Assembly: GCA_944388695.1 (NCBI GenBank)
Contig: CALXJT010000001.1
Span: 4,570-68,569 of the forward strand
Reading direction: 5' to 3'
Source: an uncultured Clostridia bacterium
GTDB lineage: Bacteria; Bacillota; Clostridia; TANB77; CAG-508
Length of the DNA stretch: 64,000 nt
Shown: one piece after another, positions 9,071 to 43,718 of the stretch
Position numbering within the stretch: the stretch's first letter is position 1
How the letters are laid out: each line of letters begins with the position of its first letter
Made by a program: the position numbers and the translations under genes
The notes under the pieces: generated by a model
Seen by the model: the letters and a program-made list of their open reading frames with translations, nothing else
What the model was told of the DNA's origin: nothing
The model's database searches: none

Positions 9071-10777
9071 ATGAAACAAAAAACAAAAGGTGTAGGACCT
9101 CGGATTGTAGCAATAATTTTAACGATTATTATAGCTCTTTTTTTAAATTGGCTACATTTACCACCATGGAACATTCGGTCAGTAAGTTTTTGGTGGTACT
9201 GGGTATTTGTATGTGTTGTTGCTCCAATGACTTTTTCAATTGTAGATACTATTGCAGGTTATGGTGCTACTACAATTATTACTAAAATTTTGAGAATTAT
9301 AGCTATTGCTATGGTAATAATTATAGTTATTCTAACTTTTGCATCATCAAAAATCTTTAATGCTGCTAGATATTCTAATCTAATTGATGTAGAAGAGGGT
9401 AATTTCCAAGAAGATATTCAGAGTATTTCAACGGTTGAAGAAGCCAAAAATTTTCCGCTTCTTGATGTTGAAACTGCACAAAAATTAGGAAATAGATCAT
9501 TGAGCCAAATAAAGAAGGTTTCTCAATTTGAAGTTAATGATGAATATAATCTTATTAGCTATAATGGAAAACAATATAGATTATCTCCATTAGAATATTC
9601 TTCTTTTGTTAAGGCTATGAATAATGAGAGTATACCTGGTTATGTGCTTGTTGATTCTGAAACTCAAGAAAGTCAATTAGTAGATTTAGAGAATGAAATC
9701 AAATATGCACCTAGTGATATTTTTTCACAAGACTTAAATAGACATTTGAGAAGTAAATATCCTAGTTATATATTTGACAAATTTCAATTTGATATTGATG
9801 ATTCAGGAGAACCTTATTATATTGCACCAGTATTAAAACCTACAATCGGACTCTTTGGAGGTCAAAAAGTAGAATCTTTTGTTATAGTAAATGCCAATTC
9901 AGGCGAATGTGAAGAATATTTACCTGAAGATTTACCAGAATGGGTAGACCATGCATATTCGTTAGATTATTTAATGAATTTAGCAGAAAATTATTACCAG
10001 TATAAAGATGGCTTTTTTAATTCTTTATTTTCAAAAACTAATGTCAAGAAGCTTTCATATAGTTATGAAGGTGAAAATGTAAATGAAGATGACCAAGAAG
10101 ATGAAAATAAATTTGTTGGTTATAATTCAATCTTAACAGAAGATGGTGTACAGTTTTTTACTTGTGTAGTTTCGGCTAGTAATGATGAATCAGCGCTAGG
10201 TTTTATTTTAGCAAACTCTAGAACTGGAAAAATAACTTATTATGAATGTGCAGGTGCTGAAGAAAGTACGGCTCAATTACAAGCAGAAAGCTTATACCAG
10301 AATTATGGTTATAAGTCTAGTTATCCATTAATGGTAAATGTTGATGGAGTGCCAACATATATCATATCATTGAAAGATAAGTCTAAAATAAATAAGGCTT
10401 ATGTTATGATTAATGTTGAAAATTACACTATATCAGCTTCTGGAGAAACATTGGAAGATGCTCTTATTGAATATAGAGAGAAGGTTTTTGGTGAAGAAGC
10501 GTTAACTCCAGATGATTTGACATCAGAAACACCAGAAGAAATAGAAGCTGAAATCTTTACTACTACTGGAACTATAACACAATTGTATCAGGCTACACAA
10601 GATGGTACGACTCAATTCTTCTTTATTTTAGATGGTGATGAAAATCTATATATTTCGCCAATTACTAATAATAGTAGGCAGGTGCAAATGTCAGTTGGAA
10701 GTAATGTTTCAATTGAATATTATAATTCACCTAATGAAGAATTAGTAGGTATTGTTTCAAAAATCAAAATCAATTAA
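9071..10777 (+). CDS. Hypothetical membrane protein with N-terminal TM helices and a large extracytoplasmic domain.
   Basis: RBS GGAGG before ATG 9071. Hydrophobic N-terminus (IVAIILTIIIALF..., WWYWVFVCVVAP, IAIAMVIIIVILTF), then a 450-aa soluble region with no motif I recognise. Confidence 0.6.
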   Translation: MKQKTKGVGPRIVAIILTIIIALFLNWLHLPPWNIRSVSFWWYWVFVCVVAPMTFSIVDTIAGYGATTIITKILRIIAIAMVIIIVILTFASSKIFNAARYSNLIDVEEGNFQEDIQSISTVEEAKNFPLLDVETAQKLGNRSLSQIKKVSQFEVNDEYNLISYNGKQYRLSPLEYSSFVKAMNNESIPGYVLVDSETQESQLVDLENEIKYAPSDIFSQDLNRHLRSKYPSYIFDKFQFDIDDSGEPYYIAPVLKPTIGLFGGQKVESFVIVNANSGECEEYLPEDLPEWVDHAYSLDYLMNLAENYYQYKDGFFNSLFSKTNVKKLSYSYEGENVNEDDQEDENKFVGYNSILTEDGVQFFTCVVSASNDESALGFILANSRTGKITYYECAGAEESTAQLQAESLYQNYGYKSSYPLMVNVDGVPTYIISLKDKSKINKAYVMINVENYTISASGETLEDALIEYREKVFGEEALTPDDLTSETPEEIEAEIFTTTGTITQLYQATQDGTTQFFFILDGDENLYISPITNNSRQVQMSVGSNVSIEYYNSPNEELVGIVSKIKIN

Positions 10778-10940
10778 AGCAAAAGCTCTGTGGTATTTTC
10801 CACAGAGCTTCTGCTTTATAATATTTTTTATATTAAATAATGTATGAATTGAATAAATATGTTATAATAGATTCAGAAGTTAAATAACTATGTAAAAATC
10901 ATACAAAAATTAATTAATGTTTTTGAAAGGAAGAATGATT

Positions 10941-11300
10941 ATGAGCTTGTTAGGAAATATTTTATGGTTTATCTTTGGAGGTTTTTTTAGTGGACTTTCT
11001 TGGATATTATCTGGAGTGATTTGGTGTATAACTATTGTTGGAATACCTTATGGAAAACAATGTTTTAAGTTTGCATCAATGTCATTTGCTCCATTTGGAA
11101 AAGAGATTGAATATGGTGGTGGAGTTCCATCATTACTCGCAAATGTGATATGGATTATCTTTTTTGGTATTCCAATGGCTTTGGAGAATTTGCTTTTTGC
11201 CTGTTTATGGTGCATAACTATAGTAGGAATACCATTTGGATTACAATTTTTCAAAATTGCTAAATTATCTTTAGCTCCATTTGGAGCAAGGATTGTTTGA
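10941..11300 (+). CDS. YccF-like inner membrane protein (DUF307), internally duplicated.
   Basis: Two repeated halves GNILWFIFGG...CITIVGIPYG...FAPFGKEI and ANVIWIIFFG...CITIVGIPFG...LAPFGARI. RBS AAAGGAAG is 7 nt before ATG 10941; the track ORF starts at 10917. Confidence 0.7.
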   Translation: MSLLGNILWFIFGGFFSGLSWILSGVIWCITIVGIPYGKQCFKFASMSFAPFGKEIEYGGGVPSLLANVIWIIFFGIPMALENLLFACLWCITIVGIPFGLQFFKIAKLSLAPFGARIV

Positions 11301-30492: not shown

Positions 30493-31014
30493 ATGGTAAT
30501 TTTGATAGCTGGAACATCACATACTGGAAAAACGCTTTTAGCACAGAATTTGTTAGAAAAATATAAATATCCATATCTATCAATTGATCATTTAAAAATG
30601 GGACTTATCAGAAGTAAAAATACTAATTTAAATGTAGAAGATGATGAAAAACTTACAGAATATTTATGGAAAATAATAAAAGAAATAATAAAAACTAATA
30701 TAGAAAATAAGCAAAATATAATAATAGAAGGATGTTACATACCTTATGAATGGAAAAAAGATTTTGATAAGGAATATTTAAAAGAAATACAATATATTTG
30801 TTTAATAATGACAGAAGATTATATAAGAAAGAATTATGATGATATTATAAAGTATGAAAATATTATTGAATTTAGAAAGATAAAAGAAGATTTTGATATA
30901 GAAGAGCTAGTAAAAGAAAATAATTATAATCTAAAGATGTGTAAAAAATATAAAAATAAATATATTTTAATTGAAGATAAGTATGATATTAATTTGGAGA
31001 ATGTTTTTTGTTAA
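30493..31014 (+). CDS. P-loop NTPase, putative small-molecule kinase.
   Basis: N-terminal Walker A ILIAGTSHTGKTLLA; RBS AAAGGAGG. Confidence 0.55.
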   Translation: MVILIAGTSHTGKTLLAQNLLEKYKYPYLSIDHLKMGLIRSKNTNLNVEDDEKLTEYLWKIIKEIIKTNIENKQNIIIEGCYIPYEWKKDFDKEYLKEIQYICLIMTEDYIRKNYDDIIKYENIIEFRKIKEDFDIEELVKENNYNLKMCKKYKNKYILIEDKYDINLENVFC

Positions 31015-31106
31015 GTTATAAATAAAAATATTAGCAATAATAAAAAATTAAATTCATATATCTTTTCATCATATGATAATAATAATTTGTAGAAGGAGAT
31101 GAAGAA

Positions 31107-31430
31107 ATGGATATTGATAACAGAAAATACAATGTAGTAACATTATGTGGCTCAATTAAATTTAAAGATAAATTTGAAGAGGTTCAAGAAAAACTTACTT
31201 TAGAAGGGAATATCGTTCTTATACCTAATTTTTTTAATAATATAAAGAAAGAAGATATAACTTCAGAAACTAAAAGAATGTTAGATAAAATGCATAGACA
31301 AAAAATAGATATGTCTGATGAAATTTATGTAATTAATTTTGGAGGATATATTGGAGAAAGTACAAAAGCAGAGATTGAATATGCAAAGACAAATGGAAAA
31401 AAGATTTTTTATTTAGAAAATATAAAATAA
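31107..31430 (+). CDS. Hypothetical 107-aa protein, possibly a Rossmann-like nucleoside-transferase-fold protein.
   Basis: RBS GAAGGAG. VVTLCGSIKF...GNIVLIPNF...IYVINFGGYIGESTKAEIEYAKTNGKKIFYL pattern. Confidence 0.35.
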   Translation: MDIDNRKYNVVTLCGSIKFKDKFEEVQEKLTLEGNIVLIPNFFNNIKKEDITSETKRMLDKMHRQKIDMSDEIYVINFGGYIGESTKAEIEYAKTNGKKIFYLENIK

Positions 31431-32618: not shown

Positions 32619-32670
32619 GGAGTCAGATGCTAATAATTAAAAATAGAAATTTGTAGAGGAGATATTTAGT

Positions 32671-33101
32671 ATGGATGCAAAACAGCTTCATCCAAATAAA
32701 AATTTGAAAATCATAACTTAAGTGCAATTACAACATATCCATTTACAGTAATAATGCAAGAAAAAAACGAAGTTAATAAGAAACATTTATCCGAATTGCC
32801 TAATAAGGGTGATACTATAGTTGGAAATGATGTATGGATAGGTCAAAATGTAACTATAATGCCAGGAGTTCATATTGGTGATGGAGCCGTTATCGGAGCA
32901 AATTCAGTTGTTGCAAAAAATGTATCTCCATATACTATTGTTGCAGGAAATCCTATTAAAGAAATTAGAAAAAGATTTTCAGAAGATGAGATTAATATTT
33001 TACTAAAAATTAAATGGTGGTGGGATTGGGATATTGATAAGATAATTAATAATTTAGATATTATTTTAGGAAAAGATGTAAACAAATTAAAAGATTTATG
33101 A
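32671..33101 (+). pseudogene. Truncated Vat-type xenobiotic (streptogramin A) O-acetyltransferase: a 16-aa N-terminal peptide and the C-terminal hexapeptide-repeat half are retained, the middle is deleted.
   Basis: MDAKQLHPNKNLKIIT then stop. The C-terminal ORF (32754-33101) reads LPNKGDTIVGNDVWIGQNVTIMPGVHIGDGAVIGANSVVAKNVSPYTIVAGNPIKEIRKRFSEDEINILLKIKWW, which matches the Vat C-terminus. Confidence 0.55.
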
Positions 33102-33200
33102 TTAAAGACTATAATGTATTAAAATTAATTTGAAACAGATTGGGAAAATGTTATAAATTAAAATGGAATTTAAATAGTAAGTTATAGAGGAGTGTATTAA

Positions 33201-33785
33201 ATGAAAATAGGAATAGATATAGACGGAGTTGTAATTGATAGTGAAACAACATTTAGGACTTTTGAAGAAATATATGATATAGACGTTTTGAAGCAAAATA
33301 ATTTAGTTGATAGAACAGAGCCAAAATTTCAATCAAGATATAATTGGAATGCCGAGCAACAAAAAAATTTTTGTAAAAGATATTTTTTACAAGTATCTAG
33401 AGAAAGTAACCTTATGTCTGGATTTATAGCAATTTATAATAGATTGAAAAAACAAGGTCATGAATTTGTCGTTATAACCGCTAGAGGACTTATGCCAGAT
33501 GGGAGCTTTATGAAAGAAATGGAAGATGATGCTAAAAGAGTTTTGAACGAGAATGGCATATTATTTGATAAATATTATTGGGGGCAAAAAGATAAATTAG
33601 AAGTTTGCCTAAAAGAAAATATCGGTATTATGATTGATGATGATTGGAGAATAATAAAAAAATTATCAGATAATAGTATTAAAACTTTATACTTTAGAGA
33701 TACAAATTTAAAAAAACTAGAGGAAACAGAGTATATTAGTGAAGTAAATAATTGGGGAGATATTTATAGGAAAATTAATTCATAA
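33201..33785 (+). CDS. HAD-superfamily 5'(3')-deoxyribonucleotidase-like hydrolase.
   Basis: Motif I IGIDIDGVV, motif II VVITAR, motif IV IMIDDD. Confidence 0.55.
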   Translation: MKIGIDIDGVVIDSETTFRTFEEIYDIDVLKQNNLVDRTEPKFQSRYNWNAEQQKNFCKRYFLQVSRESNLMSGFIAIYNRLKKQGHEFVVITARGLMPDGSFMKEMEDDAKRVLNENGILFDKYYWGQKDKLEVCLKENIGIMIDDDWRIIKKLSDNSIKTLYFRDTNLKKLEETEYISEVNNWGDIYRKINS

Positions 33786-34053
33786 CTTATCAAGCTGAAG
33801 TATAAGGCTTTAAAGGATTTAGATAAAATAATTTAAAATTTTATATATTTTTTTTTAATATAAGGTTACAATAATGAAAAAATTCAACCATAAAGAATCG
33901 AATTAACAGAGATGAATCAGTTATATCTAGATATATTCTTTAACAGATAAATATGATAATTTAGATATTTTATATTATGAAAAATTAGACTTAACAAGAT
34001 TATTAGAAGATTTATCTAGCGATAAAAAAGCTTGTAAAGGAGAAATACAAAAA

Positions 34054-34353
34054 ATGAAAAAAGTATCAACAATATTTAAAGAAAAACCTGAAAAATGGGG
34101 ATTTAGAGGTGACCTCTATTTTTGGGATTATTTAGAAAAGATATTTGATAATTATGAATTACCATTTAATTATGATGAACTAGAAAAAATTATTAAAAAA
34201 GAACATTTAAAATTGACTGGAGTTGAACTTACTAAAGAAAGCATTGGTAAATCTGAAAAATTTGAATATGGTGGTATGACTTCTGGTGGTATATGCGGTG
34301 AATTTTGGATAACCGAAGCATTGCCTTTATTGAAAGAAAGATTAAATAATTAA
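34054..34353 (+). CDS. Hypothetical 99-aa protein.
   Basis: RBS AAAGGAG. No motif. Confidence 0.4.
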   Translation: MKKVSTIFKEKPEKWGFRGDLYFWDYLEKIFDNYELPFNYDELEKIIKKEHLKLTGVELTKESIGKSEKFEYGGMTSGGICGEFWITEALPLLKERLNN

Positions 34354-34369
34354 TTAAAAATAGTAGAAT

Positions 34370-34425
34370 ATTTTTCTCTTATCTCTATTTGCACAAAACT
34401 TTGATAATCGGAACCTTTTCGAATT
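34370..34425. repeat. Copy 1 (short) of the ...ATTAGTAGAAT...TTCTC(C/T)TAT...TTGCACAAAACTTTGATAATCGGAACC repeat.
   Basis: Sequence is shared with 35549-35680 and 38874-39010. Confidence 0.6.
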
Positions 34426-34580
34426 GGAATATAATATAAATCTTAATTTGTTTTTTTAATTTTATTGACTTTTATTTGATACTATTATATAATACGAACA
34501 ACAGTTCTTTATAATAAGAATTATACTACTAAAAAAATAAATACGTTAAGAACTAAATTTTATATAAAGGATGTGTTCTT

Positions 34581-35525
34581 ATGAATGAAAAAAAGAATGA
34601 AATTATTTTATTTGAAAATCAAGGAGTAAAGTTAGAAGTAAATTTAAAAGAAGATACTGTGTGGCTAACTCAAGCACAAATGGGAATATTATTTGATGTC
34701 AAGCAATCTACTTTGAGTGAGCATATTAATAATATATTTAAAGAAGGCGAATTAGAAGAAAAAACTTCTATCGGAATTTCCGATAAAAGTTCTGGAGGAC
34801 GAAAATCAAAGCTTTATAATTTAGATGTAATAATATCTGTTGGCTATAGAGTTAAATCAAAGAATGGTGTGATTTTTAGACAATGGGCAAACAAGGTTTT
34901 AAAAGATTATATGCTAAAAGGATATGCTGTTAATCAAAGAAGATTAGAATATTTAGAAAAAACAGTAAAATTAATTGATATTGCTAATAGAATTGATGAA
35001 AGATTAGAAGGTTCTGATGCGAAGGAAATATTAAAAGTAATTGGCGAATATTCAAAAGCTCTAGATTTATTAGATGATTATGATCATAAAACATTAAAGA
35101 AAATAGAAGGGAATATTGATGAAAGAAAAATAAAGTACGAAGATTGCATAAATATTATAAATAAATTAAGATTTAATGAAGAAAGTTCTCTATTTGCACT
35201 AGAAAGAGATAAAGGTTTAGAATCAATAATAGGTAATATATATCAAAGTTTTGATGGACAAGATATATACAAAAGTATAGAAGAAAAAGGAGCAAATTTC
35301 TTATATTTAATAGTTAAAAATCATGTTTTTACTGATGGAAACAAAAGAATTGCAGCTACTTTATTTATATATTTTTTAAATTTTTACGAAATTTTATATA
35401 AAAATGAAAGGCAAGTTATTGACAATAATACACTCGCAGCACTAACATTACTTATTGCTGAATCAAATCCAAAGGAAAAAGATGTAATTATTGATTTAGT
35501 AATGAATTTTTTGAATAATGATTAA
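34581..35525 (+). CDS. RhuM-family protein fused to a C-terminal Doc/Fic-like domain.
   Basis: N-terminal RhuM region (FENQGVKLEV...WLTQAQMGILFDV...VGYRVKSKNGVIFRQWANKVLKDY). C-terminal HVFTDGNKRIAATLF (HxFxDGNKR Doc motif). Confidence 0.7.
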   Translation: MNEKKNEIILFENQGVKLEVNLKEDTVWLTQAQMGILFDVKQSTLSEHINNIFKEGELEEKTSIGISDKSSGGRKSKLYNLDVIISVGYRVKSKNGVIFRQWANKVLKDYMLKGYAVNQRRLEYLEKTVKLIDIANRIDERLEGSDAKEILKVIGEYSKALDLLDDYDHKTLKKIEGNIDERKIKYEDCINIINKLRFNEESSLFALERDKGLESIIGNIYQSFDGQDIYKSIEEKGANFLYLIVKNHVFTDGNKRIAATLFIYFLNFYEILYKNERQVIDNNTLAALTLLIAESNPKEKDVIIDLVMNFLNND

Positions 35526-35548
35526 GATGTATAGATAAAACTTTAATA

Positions 35549-35680
35549 ATAAAGATATATAAATGAATATTAGTATGCATATAACAGCTAAAATTCTTAA
35601 ATTAGCAGAAGTAGAGACTTATGGATATTTTGTATTATTCTCCTATACCTAATTTCACAAAACTTTGATAATCGGAACCT
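35549..35680. repeat. Copy 2 (full, about 130 bp) of the cassette-flanking repeat.
   Basis: ATAAAGATATATAAATGAATATTAGTAT is identical over 28 nt to 38874-38901, followed by a diverged tail ending TTCACAAAACTTTGATAATCGGAACC. Confidence 0.65.
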
Positions 35681-35878
35681 TATATATATAAATATATAAA
35701 AAACGTGAATGTTTATCTGAAAAGCGGTATAAAAAACGTGAAATGTGATTAACTTATGAAATAATGGCGAGCTAAAAATTATACATATTTTAAAAACATG
35801 TATAATTTTTTTGGTTTTTTATACATATTTATTGAAAATGTATAAAAAATGTGATATTTTATATATGGAGGTAAAAGT

Positions 35879-36940
35879 ATGAAATTAGAAATGTTACCAT
35901 ATAAAAATGTTAATTTAAAAACAAATAAAATTTTAGAACAATTAACTTTATCATCAAGAGCATTAGCAGAATTAAAAGGGTATTCAAATACAATTCCGAA
36001 TATGCATATTTTAATAAATGCTGTAACTATTAATGAGGCAAAAGATAGTAGTGCTATTGAAAATATCGTTACAACTCATGATGACATTTATAAAGTACTA
36101 ACAGAAAGTGGCTACAAAGAAGAAAATGCAAAGGAAGTTGTAGATTATAGAAATGCTATTTGGCTTGGATATGAACAAATTAAAAAAGATGGTTATATAA
36201 ATACAAATACTATTGTTAAAATTCAAGGAACTATTGAACATAATAATGCAGGAATTAGAAAATTACCAGGCACAGAATTAAAAAATTCAATTACTGGAGA
36301 AACAATATATACTCCACCTCAAAGTGAACAGGAAATAATAGCTTATTTAATAAATTTAGAAAACTTTATAAATAATAATAAAGATGGCATAGATCCATTA
36401 ATAAAAGTTTGTTTAGTACATTACCAATTTGAAAGTATTCACCCTTTTTATGATGGAAATGGAAGAACAGGAAGAATATTAAATATTCTATATCTTGTAT
36501 TAAATAATCTAATTGATAGCCCAATTTTATACTTGAGTAAATATATAAATAAGACGAAACAAGAATATTATAAATTATTTAATGAAGTTAGAGACAATAA
36601 TAATTTTGAAGATTGGATTTTATATATTTTAAAAGGTATTGAAATTACATCTAAAGAAACGATAACATTAATTGAAAAGATTCAAAATGAAATGAAAAAT
36701 TACAAAGAAGAATTTAGAAGTAAACTACCTAAAATATACTCAAAAGAGCTATTAGAAAGTTTATTTTATGAAGTTTATACAAAAATATCATATATAGAGA
36801 AAGCATGTAATGTTACTAGACTTACTGCATCTTCATATTTAAATCAGTTGGAAGAAGTAGGACTTTTGGAATCTGAAAAAATTGGAAGAGAAAGATTGTA
36901 TAAGAATACTAGATTAATAAAACTTTTATCTGAAAATTAG
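35879..36940 (+). CDS. Fic family protein (class II, with N-terminal inhibitory motif).
   Basis: Fic motif HPFYDGNGRTGR. N-terminal SxxxEN inhibitory motif (KDSSAIENI). C-terminal wHTH-like region. RBS GGAGG. Confidence 0.85.
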   Translation: MKLEMLPYKNVNLKTNKILEQLTLSSRALAELKGYSNTIPNMHILINAVTINEAKDSSAIENIVTTHDDIYKVLTESGYKEENAKEVVDYRNAIWLGYEQIKKDGYINTNTIVKIQGTIEHNNAGIRKLPGTELKNSITGETIYTPPQSEQEIIAYLINLENFINNNKDGIDPLIKVCLVHYQFESIHPFYDGNGRTGRILNILYLVLNNLIDSPILYLSKYINKTKQEYYKLFNEVRDNNNFEDWILYILKGIEITSKETITLIEKIQNEMKNYKEEFRSKLPKIYSKELLESLFYEVYTKISYIEKACNVTRLTASSYLNQLEEVGLLESEKIGRERLYKNTRLIKLLSEN

Positions 36941-36990
36941 TATGAATTTTTTAATAATAAAATAGTAAGTTACAAAGGAGTGAGTCTTAT

Positions 36991-37401
36991 ATGTTTAGTA
37001 AACCAGAAGCAGGTTGGGTAGATATTAATATTGGAAACTATGAAATAAGTGCTTCTTATTTAACAGATATTCCTATGGATTTTTTAAATTCCCTTATTAA
37101 TAGTTTAGAGAATAATTTACCTTTTTCGGTTTTTATTGATGAAGAAGGAATAGAAAATATATTATGTGCTTATTATCATGGTGTATTCATTATTACAATG
37201 GATGGTAGCAATGTAGAGTATAAAAAAATAGATATGGATTTTAATACATTTAGAATAGAAGTTGTTAAAGATATAGAAATATACTTCAACGAATGGATTA
37301 ATTGGAAGATAAACGATAATCCCCCAATATTAAAAAGTAGAGAAATAGAATTACGAAACAAATTATCCATCGCAAAAGAAAAGTTGAAAAAACATATTTA
37401 A
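36991..37401 (+). CDS. Hypothetical 136-aa protein.
   Basis: RBS AAAGGAG before ATG. No motif. Confidence 0.4.
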   Translation: MFSKPEAGWVDINIGNYEISASYLTDIPMDFLNSLINSLENNLPFSVFIDEEGIENILCAYYHGVFIITMDGSNVEYKKIDMDFNTFRIEVVKDIEIYFNEWINWKINDNPPILKSREIELRNKLSIAKEKLKKHI

Positions 37402-37627
37402 AATGAAATAACACATTTAATAAATTTTAAAAGTAAAAACTTTTTTAAATAAAAAAATAAATTATAATTTTAAAATTTTATAAATAATTTGTTGTCTGTA
37501 AAATAAGGCAAAATAGTAAGTCGAAGGAGAAAAAATATGAAAGAATTTGTGATTGATGGAAATAATTTTGATGATTTGGAAGGATTTTATTGTGAAATTG
37601 ATAAGTTATTAACAAAGAATTTATCAT

Positions 37628-37876
37628 TTGAAAGGAGAAAATAAAATTATGGAAAAAAGAAAAATTATCTCTATAATATTAGGAATAGTAATTATTATAA
37701 TAGCAATAATAATGCCTTTTCAGTTAAAACGAATATGCTATGAACATTCAATACATCAAGACTGGAGTTTGGGTGCTTGGAATGCAGTACAAATTTCAGC
37801 AACATTATATAGTATTGTAATATGTATTTTAACTTTGATTTTAGTATTTTTAAATGTATTAAAAAAATCAAAATAA
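37628..37876 (+). CDS. Small two-TM membrane protein.
   Basis: RBS AAAGGAG. ISIILGIVIIIIAIIMPF and ATLYSIVICILTLILVFL hydrophobic segments. Confidence 0.4.
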   Translation: MKGENKIMEKRKIISIILGIVIIIIAIIMPFQLKRICYEHSIHQDWSLGAWNAVQISATLYSIVICILTLILVFLNVLKKSK

Positions 37877-38873
37877 TTTTAACAACAACTTACAATTTAT
37901 ACGGAGAATATTAAAATAATAATATTCTCTATTTTTTATCAAAGCAAAAGCAAGAAGGAGGGAAGAGGAGGAGTACTTAATTTTCTAAAACAATAAAATA
38001 ATTATAAATAAAATTCACAATAATAAGATAATATTAATTAAAAATAAGCAGAACTATAAAACAATTAAAAAAATATTCTAAAGGAATAAATAATATAAAA
38101 TCAAATTAAAATAGTAAATTAAAAACAAATTAATAAAAAAACAAAAATTATTATAATAAATTAAATTTAAAAATTTTGTGCAATGTTTAAATTGTTAAAT
38201 TTTTATAACAAATATAAAAATTTAATAAACGAACATTTTAATTTAATAAGTTGATTATAAGTTAATCTGAATTGAAATTAATATATATTATAATATAATA
38301 AAATTAAATATTATAAAATAAATTTAATAATAAAAAATCATTTATAAAAGTTAATTTATATACTAATATAAATATATAATTAATTAAGCTTTAAAATCGT
38401 TTTTAAAGCATTTTAATTATAAACTTAACAAGTTATGTGTCCAGACTATATAAAATATTACAACTGATATATGTATAATATGTAAAAATACTTAAAAATG
38501 GCTAAAGATTAATACTTTCAAAAAACGCCTAAAAATTGCTAAAAAGGCGATGCACGAGAATCGATTTTAAGCCGTTTTTATTTTTTAGGCATATAGTTTG
38601 TTGTCTACAAAATACGGCAAATATAGCGAAATAGGCATTTGGGAGATTTTTGAAAAATTTTAATATTATAAAGTAACAGATTATATAATGAAATAAAATT
38701 TTATAGATATAAATTAAAATAATAAATAAAAAATAAAAAATAAATTAGATAGTTATATAAGCAAAATAAAAAAATGTCTTAAAATTGATTTTAATGAGCT
38801 ATAAGAATATTAATATAACAATAACACAAAAGATTTATGATAATAACAAATATAATATGAATATAATAAGAAA

Positions 38874-39010
38874 ATAAAGATATATAAATGAATATTAGTA
38901 TATATAGAACAACTACAAGCCTTGAATTAGTAGAATTATAGCTATATAGCTAATATATATTTTTCTCCTATCTTTCATTGCACAAAACTTTGATTTTGTG
39001 CAATGTTATT
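38874..39010. repeat. Copy 3 of the cassette-flanking repeat, ending in a perfect 12-bp hairpin CATTGCACAAAA-CTTTGAT-TTTTGTGCAATG.
   Basis: Shares 28 identical nt plus a diverged tail with copy 2. In copies 1 and 2 the hairpin is disrupted. Confidence 0.65.
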
Positions 39011-39921: not shown

Positions 39922-42564
39922 TTAATTTGATTCGGTATTTTCAACTATATTTGTATTTGAATTTACATTACTATTATTTTGATTTGTATTTGAAGATGTA
40001 TTATCATTTGTGTTCGTATTTGTATTCGAATTTGTATTAGTGTTTGTATTGGTATTGCTATTATTACTTGATGAGTTACCTGATGATGAATTTGAATTAT
40101 TATTTGTATTATTTGTTTCATTTGTATTATTTGTGTTATTACTGATATTGTTACTATTGTTTATATTGTTTGAAGTATTTGAATTAGTGTTTTGATTTGC
40201 AGTATTTGACATATTGGTTTCATTTCTAGAATTTGTTTCTATATTATTATTTGTAGTATTTAACTCCATTTCATCTTCATCAGTATTTATATTATTATTT
40301 ATTGTTGAACTTGAGCTATCATTACTATATGTATTTGTACTATTTTTAATTTTACTTCCTTTGTGTGTAGTGCAAGTTTTTGGAACAGTACCTTTGATAA
40401 AGTATTCTTCATATGTGTTTGAACATCCAGTTGTTGCTTTTAATCCTGTATCTTTACATATTTTTGCTGTTACTATTTTATTTGGTTTTACAAATTTTTT
40501 ATTTTCTAAATTTGTATGAACAGATTTCATTACATTTGCCCATATTAATCCTGCAGGATTTTGTTTGTTAAAATAAATTGTTTCATTTTGATCATATCCA
40601 AACCATGTAGCAGCTGTATAATATGGTGTGAATCCACATAGCCATCTGTCATAATTTTCGTCTGTTGTTCCTGTTTTAGCAGCCACATCCATTCCTGATA
40701 TATTACAGTATGTTGCTGTTCCATTGCTACCTAAAACTGGTTGAGTTAATAATTCTTGTATAATATATGCCGTTTCTTCTGAAAATACTCTTTTGCTTTT
40801 AGGATTTGCTTTTAAAATTGTTTTTCCTGATTTATTTACTATTTCTGTATAGAATGTTGGCTCAATGTATACTCCGTTATTTGCTATTGTTGCATATCCA
40901 GCTGCCATTTCTAATGGACTTACTCCTTTATCTAATCCTCCAAGTGCTAAAGATAAATTGTTGTCTTTCCCTGTTAATGTTGAAATTCCCATTTTTTCTA
41001 GATATTTTATGGATGTTTTCGGTGTTAGTTCTTCCATTATTTCTACAAAAGGTATGTTTTGTGATGATTCTACAGCTCTTCTTACAGTAATTTCTCCAAG
41101 GTATCCATCGTAATTTTCTGGAGAATAGTTATCTTCAAAAGTTTTTTGTGTATCATCAAATATACTTGCAGCTGTTATTTGTTTTTTGTTAATCGCTGGA
41201 GCTAGTACTGCTAATGGCTTCATTGATGAACCTGTTTGCCTTGTTGATTGAATTGCTCTATTAAATCCTCTTGCATCTTCTTTTTCTCCTAATCCTCCAA
41301 CACAACTTACTACTCTTCCTGTTGATTGGTCTATTATGACCATTGCAGCTTGTGATGTAGTACTTCCATCTTGAGATTTTATTTGATATCTTGTTTTTTC
41401 CATTTCGGCTTCTGTTTTTTCTTGTATGCTTGAAATTTGCGTACTATGTATTGTTAGTCCAGAATGATATAAGTAATTTGTTGCAAATGTTTTTGTTATA
41501 TTTTTTTCTTCTGATATATCTTCGATTATTTCGTTTATTAGAGCATCTGTGTGATATGAGTATATTCCATCAGAACTTGAAACTTCACCTTTTTTAAATT
41601 TTAATCCGTTTTCTACTTCTGATATTGCACTTTCATATTCTTCTTGAGAAATATATTCTAATTCTAGCATTTTTGATAATACTGTTTTTGTTCTTTTTTC
41701 TATTTTTTCTGAATTATCATCTTCTAAAAATGGATTATATGAATTTGGCGAATTGTTTATTCCAGCTAAAAATGCACATTCTGCTAAACTTAAGTTTCCG
41801 ACATCTTTTGAAAAATAATATTCAGAACCTGCTTGAACTCCATATATGTTTGGACCTACATATATTACATTTAAGTACATTTCTAAAATTTCATCTTTTG
41901 AAAAGAATAGCTCTAATTCATATGCTTTAACCCATTCTTTTACTTTTCTGAAAATTGAGTCTGTATTATCTCCAGTAAGATTTTTTACTAATTGTTGTGT
42001 AATTGTACTTCCTCCATATGAAGAAGATCCAAAGTGAATGACATATGAAAATATTGCTGATGCTGTTCTTTTGATGTCTACACCATGATGTGAATAATAT
42101 CTTTCGTCTTCTATTCCAACATAGGCATTTTTTAAATTTTTTGGCATTTCTGAAAGTGATACTTTTTCTTTTTTTCTTTCGCTACCTATTTGAGCTATTG
42201 TATTTCCTTCTTGGTCTAGGACTACAGAGTATTCATTTGTGAACATGTCTTCCATAATATTTTTCCATTGATATGATTTTACTCCAAATAGGATTCCTAA
42301 AATTAGTATTACTAATATTATTATACCTATTAATATTTTTTTGACTTTTCTACTTATTTTAATTTTATGATTTTTTTGATTATTATTTTCAGAACTTCTT
42401 TTCGAATTTTTTAACCCTGAAATTTTATCTTTTAAAGTTGCTTTTTGATTATTCTGACTCTTTTCCTCTTCCCTACTCTCTTCTAAATTATTAATATTGT
42501 ATATTCTTGTTTTTTCAAATTCTTCTTTTTTATTCTGTTTAAATCTTTTTCCTTCTGTTCTCAT
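39922..42564 (-). CDS. Class A penicillin-binding protein (PBP1A-type transglycosylase/transpeptidase) with a 150-aa Asn/Ser/Thr-rich C-terminal tail.
   Basis: GT51 motifs (EDERYYSHHGVD, GGSTITQQLVKN, RKVKEW). Transpeptidase SxxK (STGSSMKP), SxN and KTGT. RBS GAAGGG is 8 nt before the ATG at 42564; the track ORF extends to 42585. Confidence 0.85.
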   Translation of the reverse strand: MRTEGKRFKQNKKEEFEKTRIYNINNLEESREEEKSQNNQKATLKDKISGLKNSKRSSENNNQKNHKIKISRKVKKILIGIIILVILILGILFGVKSYQWKNIMEDMFTNEYSVVLDQEGNTIAQIGSERKKEKVSLSEMPKNLKNAYVGIEDERYYSHHGVDIKRTASAIFSYVIHFGSSSYGGSTITQQLVKNLTGDNTDSIFRKVKEWVKAYELELFFSKDEILEMYLNVIYVGPNIYGVQAGSEYYFSKDVGNLSLAECAFLAGINNSPNSYNPFLEDDNSEKIEKRTKTVLSKMLELEYISQEEYESAISEVENGLKFKKGEVSSSDGIYSYHTDALINEIIEDISEEKNITKTFATNYLYHSGLTIHSTQISSIQEKTEAEMEKTRYQIKSQDGSTTSQAAMVIIDQSTGRVVSCVGGLGEKEDARGFNRAIQSTRQTGSSMKPLAVLAPAINKKQITAASIFDDTQKTFEDNYSPENYDGYLGEITVRRAVESSQNIPFVEIMEELTPKTSIKYLEKMGISTLTGKDNNLSLALGGLDKGVSPLEMAAGYATIANNGVYIEPTFYTEIVNKSGKTILKANPKSKRVFSEETAYIIQELLTQPVLGSNGTATYCNISGMDVAAKTGTTDENYDRWLCGFTPYYTAATWFGYDQNETIYFNKQNPAGLIWANVMKSVHTNLENKKFVKPNKIVTAKICKDTGLKATTGCSNTYEEYFIKGTVPKTCTTHKGSKIKNSTNTYSNDSSSSTINNNINTDEDEMELNTTNNNIETNSRNETNMSNTANQNTNSNTSNNINNSNNISNNTNNTNETNNTNNNSNSSSGNSSSNNSNTNTNTNTNSNTNTNTNDNTSSNTNQNNSNVNSNTNIVENTESN

Positions 42565-42734
42565 ATATTTTATCCCTTCTTTCATGCTATATATACTATA
42601 TATTAAATTATATTATTTATATATATGAAATGTTTTGTGTTTTTTAATGCCTATATTATATCACAATTAATTGACTTTTCCTATTTTCTTTTTTATATTT
42701 TTGATATATAATTATTTAGATGGGAGTGATAAAT

Positions 42735-43718
42735 ATGATAAATAGAGAAAATAATCCTGATTATTTAAATTCTTTTTTAGACTATAGTACGACTATTCTT
42801 AATAAATCACCAAATAGTATAAAAGAGTATAATTATGATATTTCAATGTTTTTAAAATATATAAAAATACATTATAATTTGACATCTGAAACGGATTTTT
42901 CTAAAATTACAATTAATGATATTCCTCTAGATGTAATAAAAAAGATAACATTAGATGATATACATGCCTTTTTAAGTTATTTAGCAATAGAATTAAAAAG
43001 TAAATCTACTACAAGAGCTAGAAAAGTTTCTACAATAAGAATATTTTTTAAATATTTAACATCAAAAGCTCACTTATTAGAAAAAAATCCAGCACAAGAT
43101 TTAGAGACTCCAAAACTTGATAGACGCCTTCCTAAATATCTTAATCTTGAAGAAAGTAAGAGATTACTTTCAGTTGCAGCAAGTGAGGATAATAGAAATA
43201 AAGAAAGAGATACTGCTATTTTAAAATTATTTTTAAATTGTGGCATGAGACTTTCAGAACTTGTTGGTATTGACATTAGAGATATTGATTTTAGTGAATG
43301 TAAATTAACTGTCATAGGAAAAGGAAATAAAGAGCGTACTTTATATCTTAATAAATCTTGTATAGATGCTATTAAAGATTATTTGGCTGTTCGACCTAGC
43401 CAAGGAGTGAAAGTTGATAAACTTCATTCTGATAGAGCTTTATTTTTGAGCGAAAGACGTGAAAGAATAAGTAAGAGAACTGTTCAGCATATAGTAGAGA
43501 AAGAATTACGAGCTGCTGGGTTAGATACTTCTAAATTTTCAACTCATAAGTTAAGACATACAGCTGCAACACTTATGTATCAATATGGAAATGTTGATAT
43601 TAGAGCTTTACAAGTATTGCTTGGGCATGAGAGTATATCAACAACAGAAATTTATACACATGTTAATAATGAACAAGTAAGAGATGCTATTGAAAAGAAT
43701 CCGTTAAAAGATTTTTAA
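42735..43718 (+). CDS. Tyrosine recombinase, XerC/XerD family.
   Basis: Catalytic R...HxxR...Y residues (GMRLSELVGI, HKLRHTAATLMY, LLGHESISTTEIYTHV). GGGAG before ATG 42735. Confidence 0.8.
   Translation: MINRENNPDYLNSFLDYSTTILNKSPNSIKEYNYDISMFLKYIKIHYNLTSETDFSKITINDIPLDVIKKITLDDIHAFLSYLAIELKSKSTTRARKVSTIRIFFKYLTSKAHLLEKNPAQDLETPKLDRRLPKYLNLEESKRLLSVAASEDNRNKERDTAILKLFLNCGMRLSELVGIDIRDIDFSECKLTVIGKGNKERTLYLNKSCIDAIKDYLAVRPSQGVKVDKLHSDRALFLSERRERISKRTVQHIVEKELRAAGLDTSKFSTHKLRHTAATLMYQYGNVDIRALQVLLGHESISTTEIYTHVNNEQVRDAIEKNPLKDF

Follow-up and report, generated by a model that had tools for sequence, protein, structure and literature searches.

The 64,000-nt stretch of contig CALXJT010000001.1 (assembly GCA_944388695.1) considered here, referred to as the window, belongs to an uncultured Clostridia bacterium (TANB77; CAG-508) and contains three copies of a repeat, one copy preceding each of its genes for Fic-fold proteins (copy 1 RhuM-Doc, copy 2 Fic). 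Copy 3 probably holds the chromosome dimer resolution site (dif) of this low-GC lineage of gut Clostridia, and copies 1 and 2 would be two scars of the serial insertion of cassettes devoid of a recombinase, with the Xer enzyme of the host being apparently borrowed. To this reading, taken as a whole and built from the sequence and its comparison with related loci, we assign a probability of about 75%.

Anatomy of the repeats

The three copies lie where a previous, sequence-only reading of this DNA had placed them, and its description of their structure was reproduced (coordinates in table 1). The 28-mer ATAAAGATATATAAATGAATATTAGTAT common to copies 2 and 3 occurs exactly twice, and the 17-nt tail TTGCACAAAACTTTGAT common to all three is found at 34389, 35653 and 38978, always on the + strand and with at most one mismatch; neither was matched in any of 100 shuffles. 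Copies 2 and 3 are 80% identical over an alignment of 122 nt, copy 1 consists of the tail only (the common part being the final ~49 nt), the GC content falls to 15.7% over the AT-rich stretch at 38001–39000, and copy 3 ends in a hairpin with a perfect 12-bp stem and a 6-nt loop (38976–39005). As one possibility, that reading had also proposed that the region at 35.5–39.0 kb is an integrated element, which is indeed bounded by copies 2 and 3.

It missed two points: what looks like a hairpin is a site of the dif type, with an 11-6-11 layout, located at the replication terminus, and copy 3 alone is complete. The arms of the full site are perfect inverted repeats, and with its 28 bp and 6-bp spacer the site conforms to the layout of dif-type sites (~28 bp, two inverted arms of 11 bp and a spacer of 6–8 bp). 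Copies 1 and 2 diverge from copy 3 exactly after the spacer CTTTGA, which is followed by TAATCGGAACC in the former and by TTTTGTGCAAT in the latter. The box CTCCTATCTCT and the T-rich tract before it are conserved beside every left arm. The window contains one full site and one isolated arm, and copy 1 shows no differences among the same-species strains sampled.

Position at the terminus and conservation in related species

The cumulative GC skew of the window reaches its maximum at ~39 kb, at the full site, and all genes are on the + strand before ~39 kb and on the − strand after it. Such a combined switch of skew and gene strand marks a replication terminus, and the full palindrome coincides with it. 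Eighty loci from species representatives were fetched by using the recombinase described below as the anchor; all derive from metagenome-assembled genomes of uncultured gut Clostridia (chicken, human, rabbit, goat and sheep), one being a closed chromosome of 1.57 Mb. The full palindrome was found within 10 kb of the recombinase gene in 15 of them, and in all 15 the skew flips from + to − at the full site, which is why the palindrome is taken as the dif of the lineage. Canonical Firmicutes dif was not found in the 64-kb window, nor were a tRNA or tmRNA that might serve as an integration target, and Rfam gave no match with the whole window (gathering threshold) or with the 34.3–39.1 kb region (E ≤ 1).

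In many of the related loci there are hybrid sites in which flank, left arm and spacer are unchanged, and their right arms are family-specific and mostly start with TAAT. The gene order is kept, with a Rho-containing block on one side and the PBP1a and xer genes on the other. In most species the site and the cassettes face the opposite way with respect to the window and L059 (loci are designated by L and a number), so that the array grows on whichever replichore the box side faces. The orientation of E. coli dif at the terminus is not known to be critical for its function.

The Xer-type recombinase

The sequence-only reading had called for a cognate recombinase, and a candidate is present 3.7 kb from the full site. 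The open reading frame (ORF) encodes 332 residues in the window, or 327 from the later start adopted in the gene calls of other strains. Alignment with XerD (1a0p) shows that the catalytic R-K-HxxR-H-Y set is conserved. The best matches are XerC and XerD, the protein scores below every NCBIfam equivalog cutoff for Xer proteins (XerC, XerD, XerS, XerA), and its relation to XerH is distant (4e-18). By these comparisons it is a member of the Xer family and not one of the named orthologues. The gene, catalytically complete, is syntenic in the 80 species, and a site is found within 10 kb of it in at least 21 of them. Neither E1 nor E2, the two cassettes of the window, contains a recombinase gene or domain, and each is bounded by dif or dif-like hybrid sites. 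The host Xer is therefore the preferred candidate as the catalyst, being linked to the site with no other recombinase found. The palindromic arms imply a homodimeric enzyme.

The presence of a recombinase near an array of short cassettes of one to few genes, in one orientation and separated by repeats, also recalls an integron, a possibility raised by the sequence-only reading; in such a platform an integron integrase would act on folded attC-type sites and insert promoterless cassettes at attI. Chromosomal integrons can hold defence genes. However, the recombinase scored 107 bits with the integron-integrase model TIGR02249 (cutoff, 265) and 83 bits with NF011946 (cutoff, 435), being closer to XerC/XerD/XerA; the repeats are direct and lack the internal symmetry of attC-type imperfect palindromes; E1 has its own promoter-like sequence (TTGACT-17-TATAAT); and insertion takes place in the distal palindrome of the terminus rather than at a site beside the integrase gene. 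We consider an integron very improbable.

Two features of the xer locus may be mentioned. The xer coding sequence itself contains, around 360 nt into it (L005 10361, L034 10358), a conserved GCACAAAAC/TTTAGA stretch similar to a left arm followed by the spacer; this recurs in many species among L001–L080 and is probably a coding coincidence. Furthermore, in several relatives a lone perfect arm (ATTGCACAAAA, then TTTTTA or CTTTTT) is found 65–80 nt upstream of the xer start codon (L078 ~9936, L057 ~8015, and L010, L015, L020, L037 and L038), which may be an autoregulatory operator or a relic site.

Strain polymorphism and precise insertion in the core

An exact-protein lookup with the neighbouring GNAT gene yielded seven same-species contexts. 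Beyond the site, L084 contains the Fic cassette of the window, L085–L087 carry the flanks of other cassettes, and L081–L083 contain a 5.8-kb block encoding a helix-turn-helix repressor and about ten small ORFs, including a Zot-like ATPase. The element of L083 is related but different, with a Phage_CRI/phrog_702 replication protein and TTTTCGAAATA as its left arm. No integrase or recombinase domain was found in the L082 and L083 inserts.

Two clean pairs of empty and occupied sites with identical flanks were obtained (L086 versus L082 and L087 versus L081). The empty junction of L086 reads ...tatctttt ATTGCACAAAA CTTTGA TTTTGTGCAAT gttatttctcgg..., and in the occupied L082 the same left flank and the full site are followed by gttgtgtataac... 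and the 5.8-kb element, the far junction of which is ...attactaaa AAAAAATGAAA CTTTGA TTTTGTGCAAT gttatttctcgg.... The insertion point of the inovirus-like element is within the 28-bp core, and the element is flanked at one end by the full site and at the other by a degenerate arm, the spacer and the perfect right arm. Insertion in the core with regeneration of the full site is the hallmark of Xer-exploiting elements. The arm polarity of this phage class is opposite to that of the cassettes. A presence/absence polymorphism with precise core junctions was found for the phage class and, in part, for the cassettes.

When the other flank was compared by anchoring on His_Phos_1 and RhuM-Doc, an additional cassette encoding an AAA_14-DUF4143 protein and a NUDIX protein was found between RhuM and Fic in L098, L104 and L106. 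Both its bounding hybrid sites are visible in L104 and L106, and the junction with the window is chimeric. In L089 the genes after Fic differ. The sequence-only reading had named two properties that would speak against its own proposal, a repeat confined to this locus and a locus invariant among strains. Neither holds, as the repeat is found in many loci and strains differ here. The serial insertion of toxin-like cassettes that it suggested is supported, with the repeats as site-specific recombination junctions.

The chimeric junction concerns E2. Its head (35669–35773, with two AAAAAACGTGAA units) is common to the AAA_14/NUDIX cassette of other strains, and from ~35774 it matches the Fic cassette, the native weak arm of which is TAATGGTCGGT in L009 and L104. 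E2 is therefore a fusion, and events that are not site-specific also remodel the array. The doubled AAAAAACGTGAA heads two different cassettes (window 35690–35760 and L104 6290–6360) and is possibly a shared operator or promoter element.

Two further polymorphic spots of these strains lie off the core. In L085 a DUF2726 gene (10654–11217) is found between the GNAT gene and dif, adding ~0.9 kb. About 8 kb from dif, the pair of genes for 173-aa and 107-aa (DUF4406-like) proteins at 30493–31430 is replaced by a pair for 177-aa (Mntp/CPT-like) and 91–93-aa proteins in L098–L100, L104, L106 and L107.

Cassette class and phage class

Thirty distinct site-to-site cassettes were collected, 10 from genome loci and strains and 20 from a scan of metagenomes for hybrid sites, with sizes of 0.65–8.3 kb. 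In the 20 metagenome cassettes the ORFs amount to 32.2 kb in the sense and 0.9 kb in the antisense direction. The full site is the last one in each of the eight new arrays that contain one. Except for a 35-aa fragment, the 90 kb of metagenome cassettes yielded no Xer-like gene.

Cargo of the defence type is present in 18 of the 30. It includes SoFic (4e-110), RhuM and RhuM-Doc (PDC-S05/S23, 3e-117), AAA_14-DUF4143 ATPases (PDC-S01, up to 7e-148), AbiQ (1e-45) and NUDIX proteins (PDC-S07); other cargo consists of M29 peptidase, CAAX protease, inositol monophosphatase, acyltransferase, VanZ, surface protein and unknowns. In the window, RhuM-Doc combines the Pfam RhuM and Fic/Doc domains and matches PADLOC PDC-S23 with the above E-value, and the Fic gene of E2 is the SoFic just mentioned.

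E1 and Fic DNA is 86–96% identical between species in which Xer and PBP1a are only 62–79% identical, a difference that indicates horizontal transfer of the cargo. The DNA of E1 is 96% identical to that of L031, where Xer is ~73% identical, and the Fic module of E2 is 86–94% identical to those of L009, L017, L069 and L073.

Scanning of IMG/VR for the spacer plus right arm plus GTT identified 14 viral contigs (L108–L121), 13 of which have a non-conserved left arm, the configuration predicted for a phage-type attP (degenerate arm, CTTTGA and TTTTGTGCAAT). The small contigs (4.9–10.8 kb) contain no recombinase; in the 30–43 kb phages an Xer-like integrase, 34–52% identical to the host Xer, is encoded directly beside the site (e.g. 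L115 8366–9316 and L120 2498–3475). A 40.7-kb contig (L119/L121) has the site at both ends.

The location of the phage integrases next to attP ties a recombinase clade to the arm sequence and at the same time provides a rival catalyst. According to this alternative, temperate phages targeting the same site would supply Xer-like integrases, which would move the cassettes in trans, in a satellite-like dependence, in place of the host Xer. Nine of the IMG/VR contigs, from phages of 30–43 kb, have such an integrase directly adjacent to an attP whose spacer and right arm are the same, and L049 has such a paralogue next to its dif. However, the phage attPs keep the right arm and the cassettes the left arm and box, no such integrase is found in the window or in most cassette-bearing loci, and the arms are palindromic, so that the host enzyme should recognize both classes. 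We regard this alternative as unlikely.

A further view is that the palindrome is a mere bidirectional terminator between convergent replichores and that the repeats are chance duplications or akin to miniature inverted-repeat transposable elements (MITEs), the latter having been suggested by the sequence-only reading. A terminator scan does flag 38976–39005, and some cassette flanks carry strong terminator hairpins. However, conservation across species extends beyond structure to the sequence itself, the phage junctions fall inside the palindrome, and the viral attPs carry one half of it. A MITE or transposon was rejected, as inverted repeats are confined to the dif core, with none at the termini, and the copies are not flanked by a duplicated target. 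We give this view hardly any credence.

Proposed mechanism

The host Xer-like enzyme, presumably as a homodimer and acting alone, would bind the palindromic dif, which would consist of box, left arm, spacer and right arm. The cassettes would be presented in a circular form, with an attP made of the conserved flank, box CTCCTATCTCT, a cognate left arm, the spacer and a weak, non-cognate right arm; the attP of phages would contain a weak arm, the spacer and a cognate right arm followed by GTT. Crossover in the spacer, with a presumed order of strand exchange, would insert cassettes at the box side of dif, and phages at the opposite one. After cassette insertion, the chromosomal left arm and spacer joined to the weak arm of the cassette would be left upstream, and the cassette left arm and spacer joined to the chromosomal right arm would rebuild the full dif downstream, ready for the next event. 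The weak arm of the hybrid should disfavour re-excision. With the full dif being rebuilt at the downstream end each time, E1 (RhuM-Doc) would have entered first and E2 (SoFic) second, the latter being later remodelled by deletion and fusion.

Several observations weigh against this proposal. No clean pair of empty and occupied sites was found for E1 or E2, E1 being in every same-species strain sampled, and a cassette-free dif was never seen among the sites examined. Excised circles were sought as contigs with terminal overlaps, and none was found among 120 metagenome loci or short viral contigs; the cassette-type site gave 0 matches in the IMG/VR viral contigs. About three-quarters of the 80 recombinase-anchored loci lack a site within 10 kb, some of them ending early at contig ends. 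The box-containing left flank is conserved beside every full site too, so that it could be part of dif itself, and the genome beyond the 64 kb analysed may contain another Xer gene or a canonical dif. Finally, a 1.7-kb segment with the Hexapep, 194-aa and 99-aa genes (32647–34350) is gained or lost ~40 nt to the left of copy 1, with a 13-nt overlap. Such an indel off the core, along with the chimeric head of E2, indicates that homologous or illegitimate recombination also shapes the array. The genes of this segment (Hexapep-transferase, 194-aa and 99-aa proteins) are absent in L090, L091 and L102 and partly replaced in L092 and L095, and may be older, decayed cassettes.

It could then be argued that the whole array results from homologous recombination between dif-flank modules of 50–480 nt, for example after DNA uptake, the locus being a hotspot and the segments not being mobile elements. 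Consistent with it are the flank conservation, which extends for up to ~480 nt at full and hybrid sites alike, the 32647–34350 indel, the E2 head and the lack of circles. Against it, hybrid and full sites cease to be homologous precisely where the spacer meets the right arm, as seen in dozens of sites that have 40 or more different right arms; the array always ends with the full site; and the phage insertions prove site-specific crossover at the core. We consider this explanation improbable.

The AT-rich module and neighbouring features

The 1.1-kb AT-rich module of E2 has counterparts of 82–86% identity in L021 and L059, which are likewise adjacent to the full site, and the terminator-like hairpin at its left edge is conserved in both. 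Tandem repeats such as those of type III antitoxins were sought in the AT-rich stretch, and only low-complexity AT repeats were found. The module contains the isolated arm of the window (table 1), a motif that also precedes xer in the relatives mentioned above and could be an operator or a relic site, and a near-invariant non-coding block of 136 nt. This block was found in more than 30 loci (including L006, L015, L021 and L059), in every case 210–335 nt upstream of a site with unchanged orientation, and was absent from phage inserts. The block contains a recurring sub-motif, AATCGATTTTAAGCC/AATTGATTTTAAT. RNAalifold revealed neither structure nor covariation in it and Rfam gave no match, so that the idea of a small RNA was dropped; by analogy with cer and psi, our guess is that it might be an accessory recombination sequence.

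RNAalifold applied to 29 cassette flanks gave no consensus structure. When the flanks were folded singly, strong terminator hairpins were found in one flank class only (11 of 29 with z < −1.5, down to −5), and the flank class of the window has weak hairpins only; the notion that every cassette ends in a terminator was downgraded accordingly. A 35-aa ORF at 37537, barstar-like by eye, has no Pfam support. At the 3' end of the PBP1a gene (39922–42585, − strand), positions 39948–40260 contain tandem repeats of 9 and 12 nt that encode a low-complexity C-terminal tail.

Table 1. Coordinates of the repeat copies, the two cassettes and associated features in the window.
Feature	Position	Strand	Details
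Copy 1, hybrid junction	34369..34415	+	T-rich flank and box variant TCTCTTATCTCT; left arm TTTGCACAAAA 34388-34398; spacer CTTTGA 34399-34404; non-cognate right arm TAATCGGAACC 34405-34415
Cassette E1	34405..35668	+	1264 bp; single gene RhuM-Doc 34581-35525; 3' flank with 28-mer, box, left arm and spacer
E1 promoter-like sequence	34465-34493		TTGACT-17-TATAAT; promoter scan
Copy 2, hybrid junction	35548..35679	+	28-mer 35549-35576; weak hairpin; box CTCCTATACCT; left arm ATTTCACAAAA 35652-35662; spacer 35663-35668; right arm TAATCGGAACC 35669-35679
Cassette E2	35669..38993	+	3325 bp, composite; SoFic 35879-36940; 136-aa ORF 36991-37401; 82-aa ORF 37628-37876
AT-rich non-coding module of E2	37884-38976	+	
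Terminator-like hairpin	37904..37937	+	GAGAATATTA-AAATAA-TAATATTCTC, then TATTTTTT; left edge of AT-rich module
Isolated perfect arm	38174..38187	+	TTTTGTGCAAT + GTT; no partner arm
Near-invariant 136-nt non-coding block	38530..38665	+	
Copy 3 flank	38873..38976	+	28-mer 38874-38901; short hairpin TAGCTATATAGCTA; T-run; box CTCCTATCTTTC
Full dif-like site	38977..39004	+	in copy 3; 28 bp, perfect 11-6-11 palindrome; left arm ATTGCACAAAA 38977-38987; spacer CTTTGA 38988-38993; right arm TTTTGTGCAAT 38994-39004
Xer-family tyrosine recombinase, candidate catalyst	42720..43718	+	Pfam Phage_integrase and SAM-like N domain

Relation to known systems and concluding remarks

The array is best compared with the mobile elements that integrate by exploiting Xer (IMEXs), such as CTX-phi, VGJ-phi and TLC-phi of Vibrio cholerae, the gonococcal genetic island and the Enterobacter IMI islands (PMC5357621, PMC6744903, PMC4246890). 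It shares with them the lack of an integrase, the insertion at the terminus dif, a dif-mimicking attP with one good and one poor arm, the tandem arrays beside a regenerated dif and the presence of filamentous phages among the users. However, the host is an uncultured Clostridia, and its dif is atypical in being perfectly palindromic, which implies one recombinase rather than XerC plus XerD. Furthermore, most elements are cassettes of 1–4 kb without replication or phage genes, and there are two classes that use opposite arms, the cassettes keeping the left and the phages the right one.

The dif (pdif) modules of Acinetobacter (PMC6449649, PMC12907356, PMC7399989) are similarly small, carry one or few accessory genes (for resistance or toxin–antitoxin systems), are bounded by Xer sites, lack a recombinase of their own and are shuffled between replicons. 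Unlike the array described here, which is chromosomal, at the true dif and made of direct-repeat sites of which only the last is complete, pdif modules are mainly plasmid-borne, have complete XerC/XerD sites in alternating orientation and depend on XerC/XerD. An Acinetobacter-type module was ruled out by the direct orientation of the sites and by the non-cognate right arm of the internal ones.

Among the systems with a single recombinase, namely XerH/difH, XerS/difSL, XerA, and XerL with the dif mimic of LME-1 (PMC5241119, PMC5357621, PMC9765430), XerH/difH is the precedent for near-identical arms used by one enzyme (PMC5241119), and the near-identical arms, the 6-bp spacer and the linkage of the recombinase gene to the site are found here as well. 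As with XerL, the dif site was revealed by a mobile element that mimics dif (PMC9765430). The present protein differs from these in being below the NCBIfam XerS/XerA cutoffs and distant from XerH. With integron arrays (PMC4792948) the locus has in common short cassettes in one orientation beside a tyrosine recombinase, but it has neither an IntI-type integrase nor attC sites, and insertion is at dif. The array is, thus, IMEX-like and integron-resembling, located at dif, and neither an integron nor a MITE. Our literature search found no description of this arrangement in Clostridia.

A broader and more tentative proposal, which we consider possible but somewhat less probable than not, is that in this widespread lineage of uncultured gut Clostridia with small genomes a single Xer and a perfectly palindromic dif form an integron-like capture platform. 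The cassettes, each with a strong arm plus box and a dispensable weak arm, would stack one way on one side of dif and make up an exchangeable bank of single-gene anti-phage systems (SoFic, RhuM-Doc, AbiQ, PDC-S01). The other arm of the site would be contested by inoviruses and by phages with Xer-derived integrases, and direction would be controlled by the 136-nt block and the box as accessory sequences.

The present analysis provides a candidate dif/Xer system for uncultured gut Clostridia that form a large group, occur in samples from humans, chickens, rabbits and ruminants, and have a terminus site unlike the canonical Firmicutes dif. It suggests that the exploitation of Xer reaches beyond Proteobacteria and filamentous phages and may also build ordered, integron-like arrays of cassettes. 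With known or candidate anti-phage genes in more than half of the cassettes, the site could serve as a sequence 'hook' for the identification of new single-gene defence systems in metagenomes. Finally, the use of opposite arms of a symmetric site by two classes of elements would offer a simple natural system in which the relation of arm strength to the direction and reversibility of tyrosine recombination could be studied.

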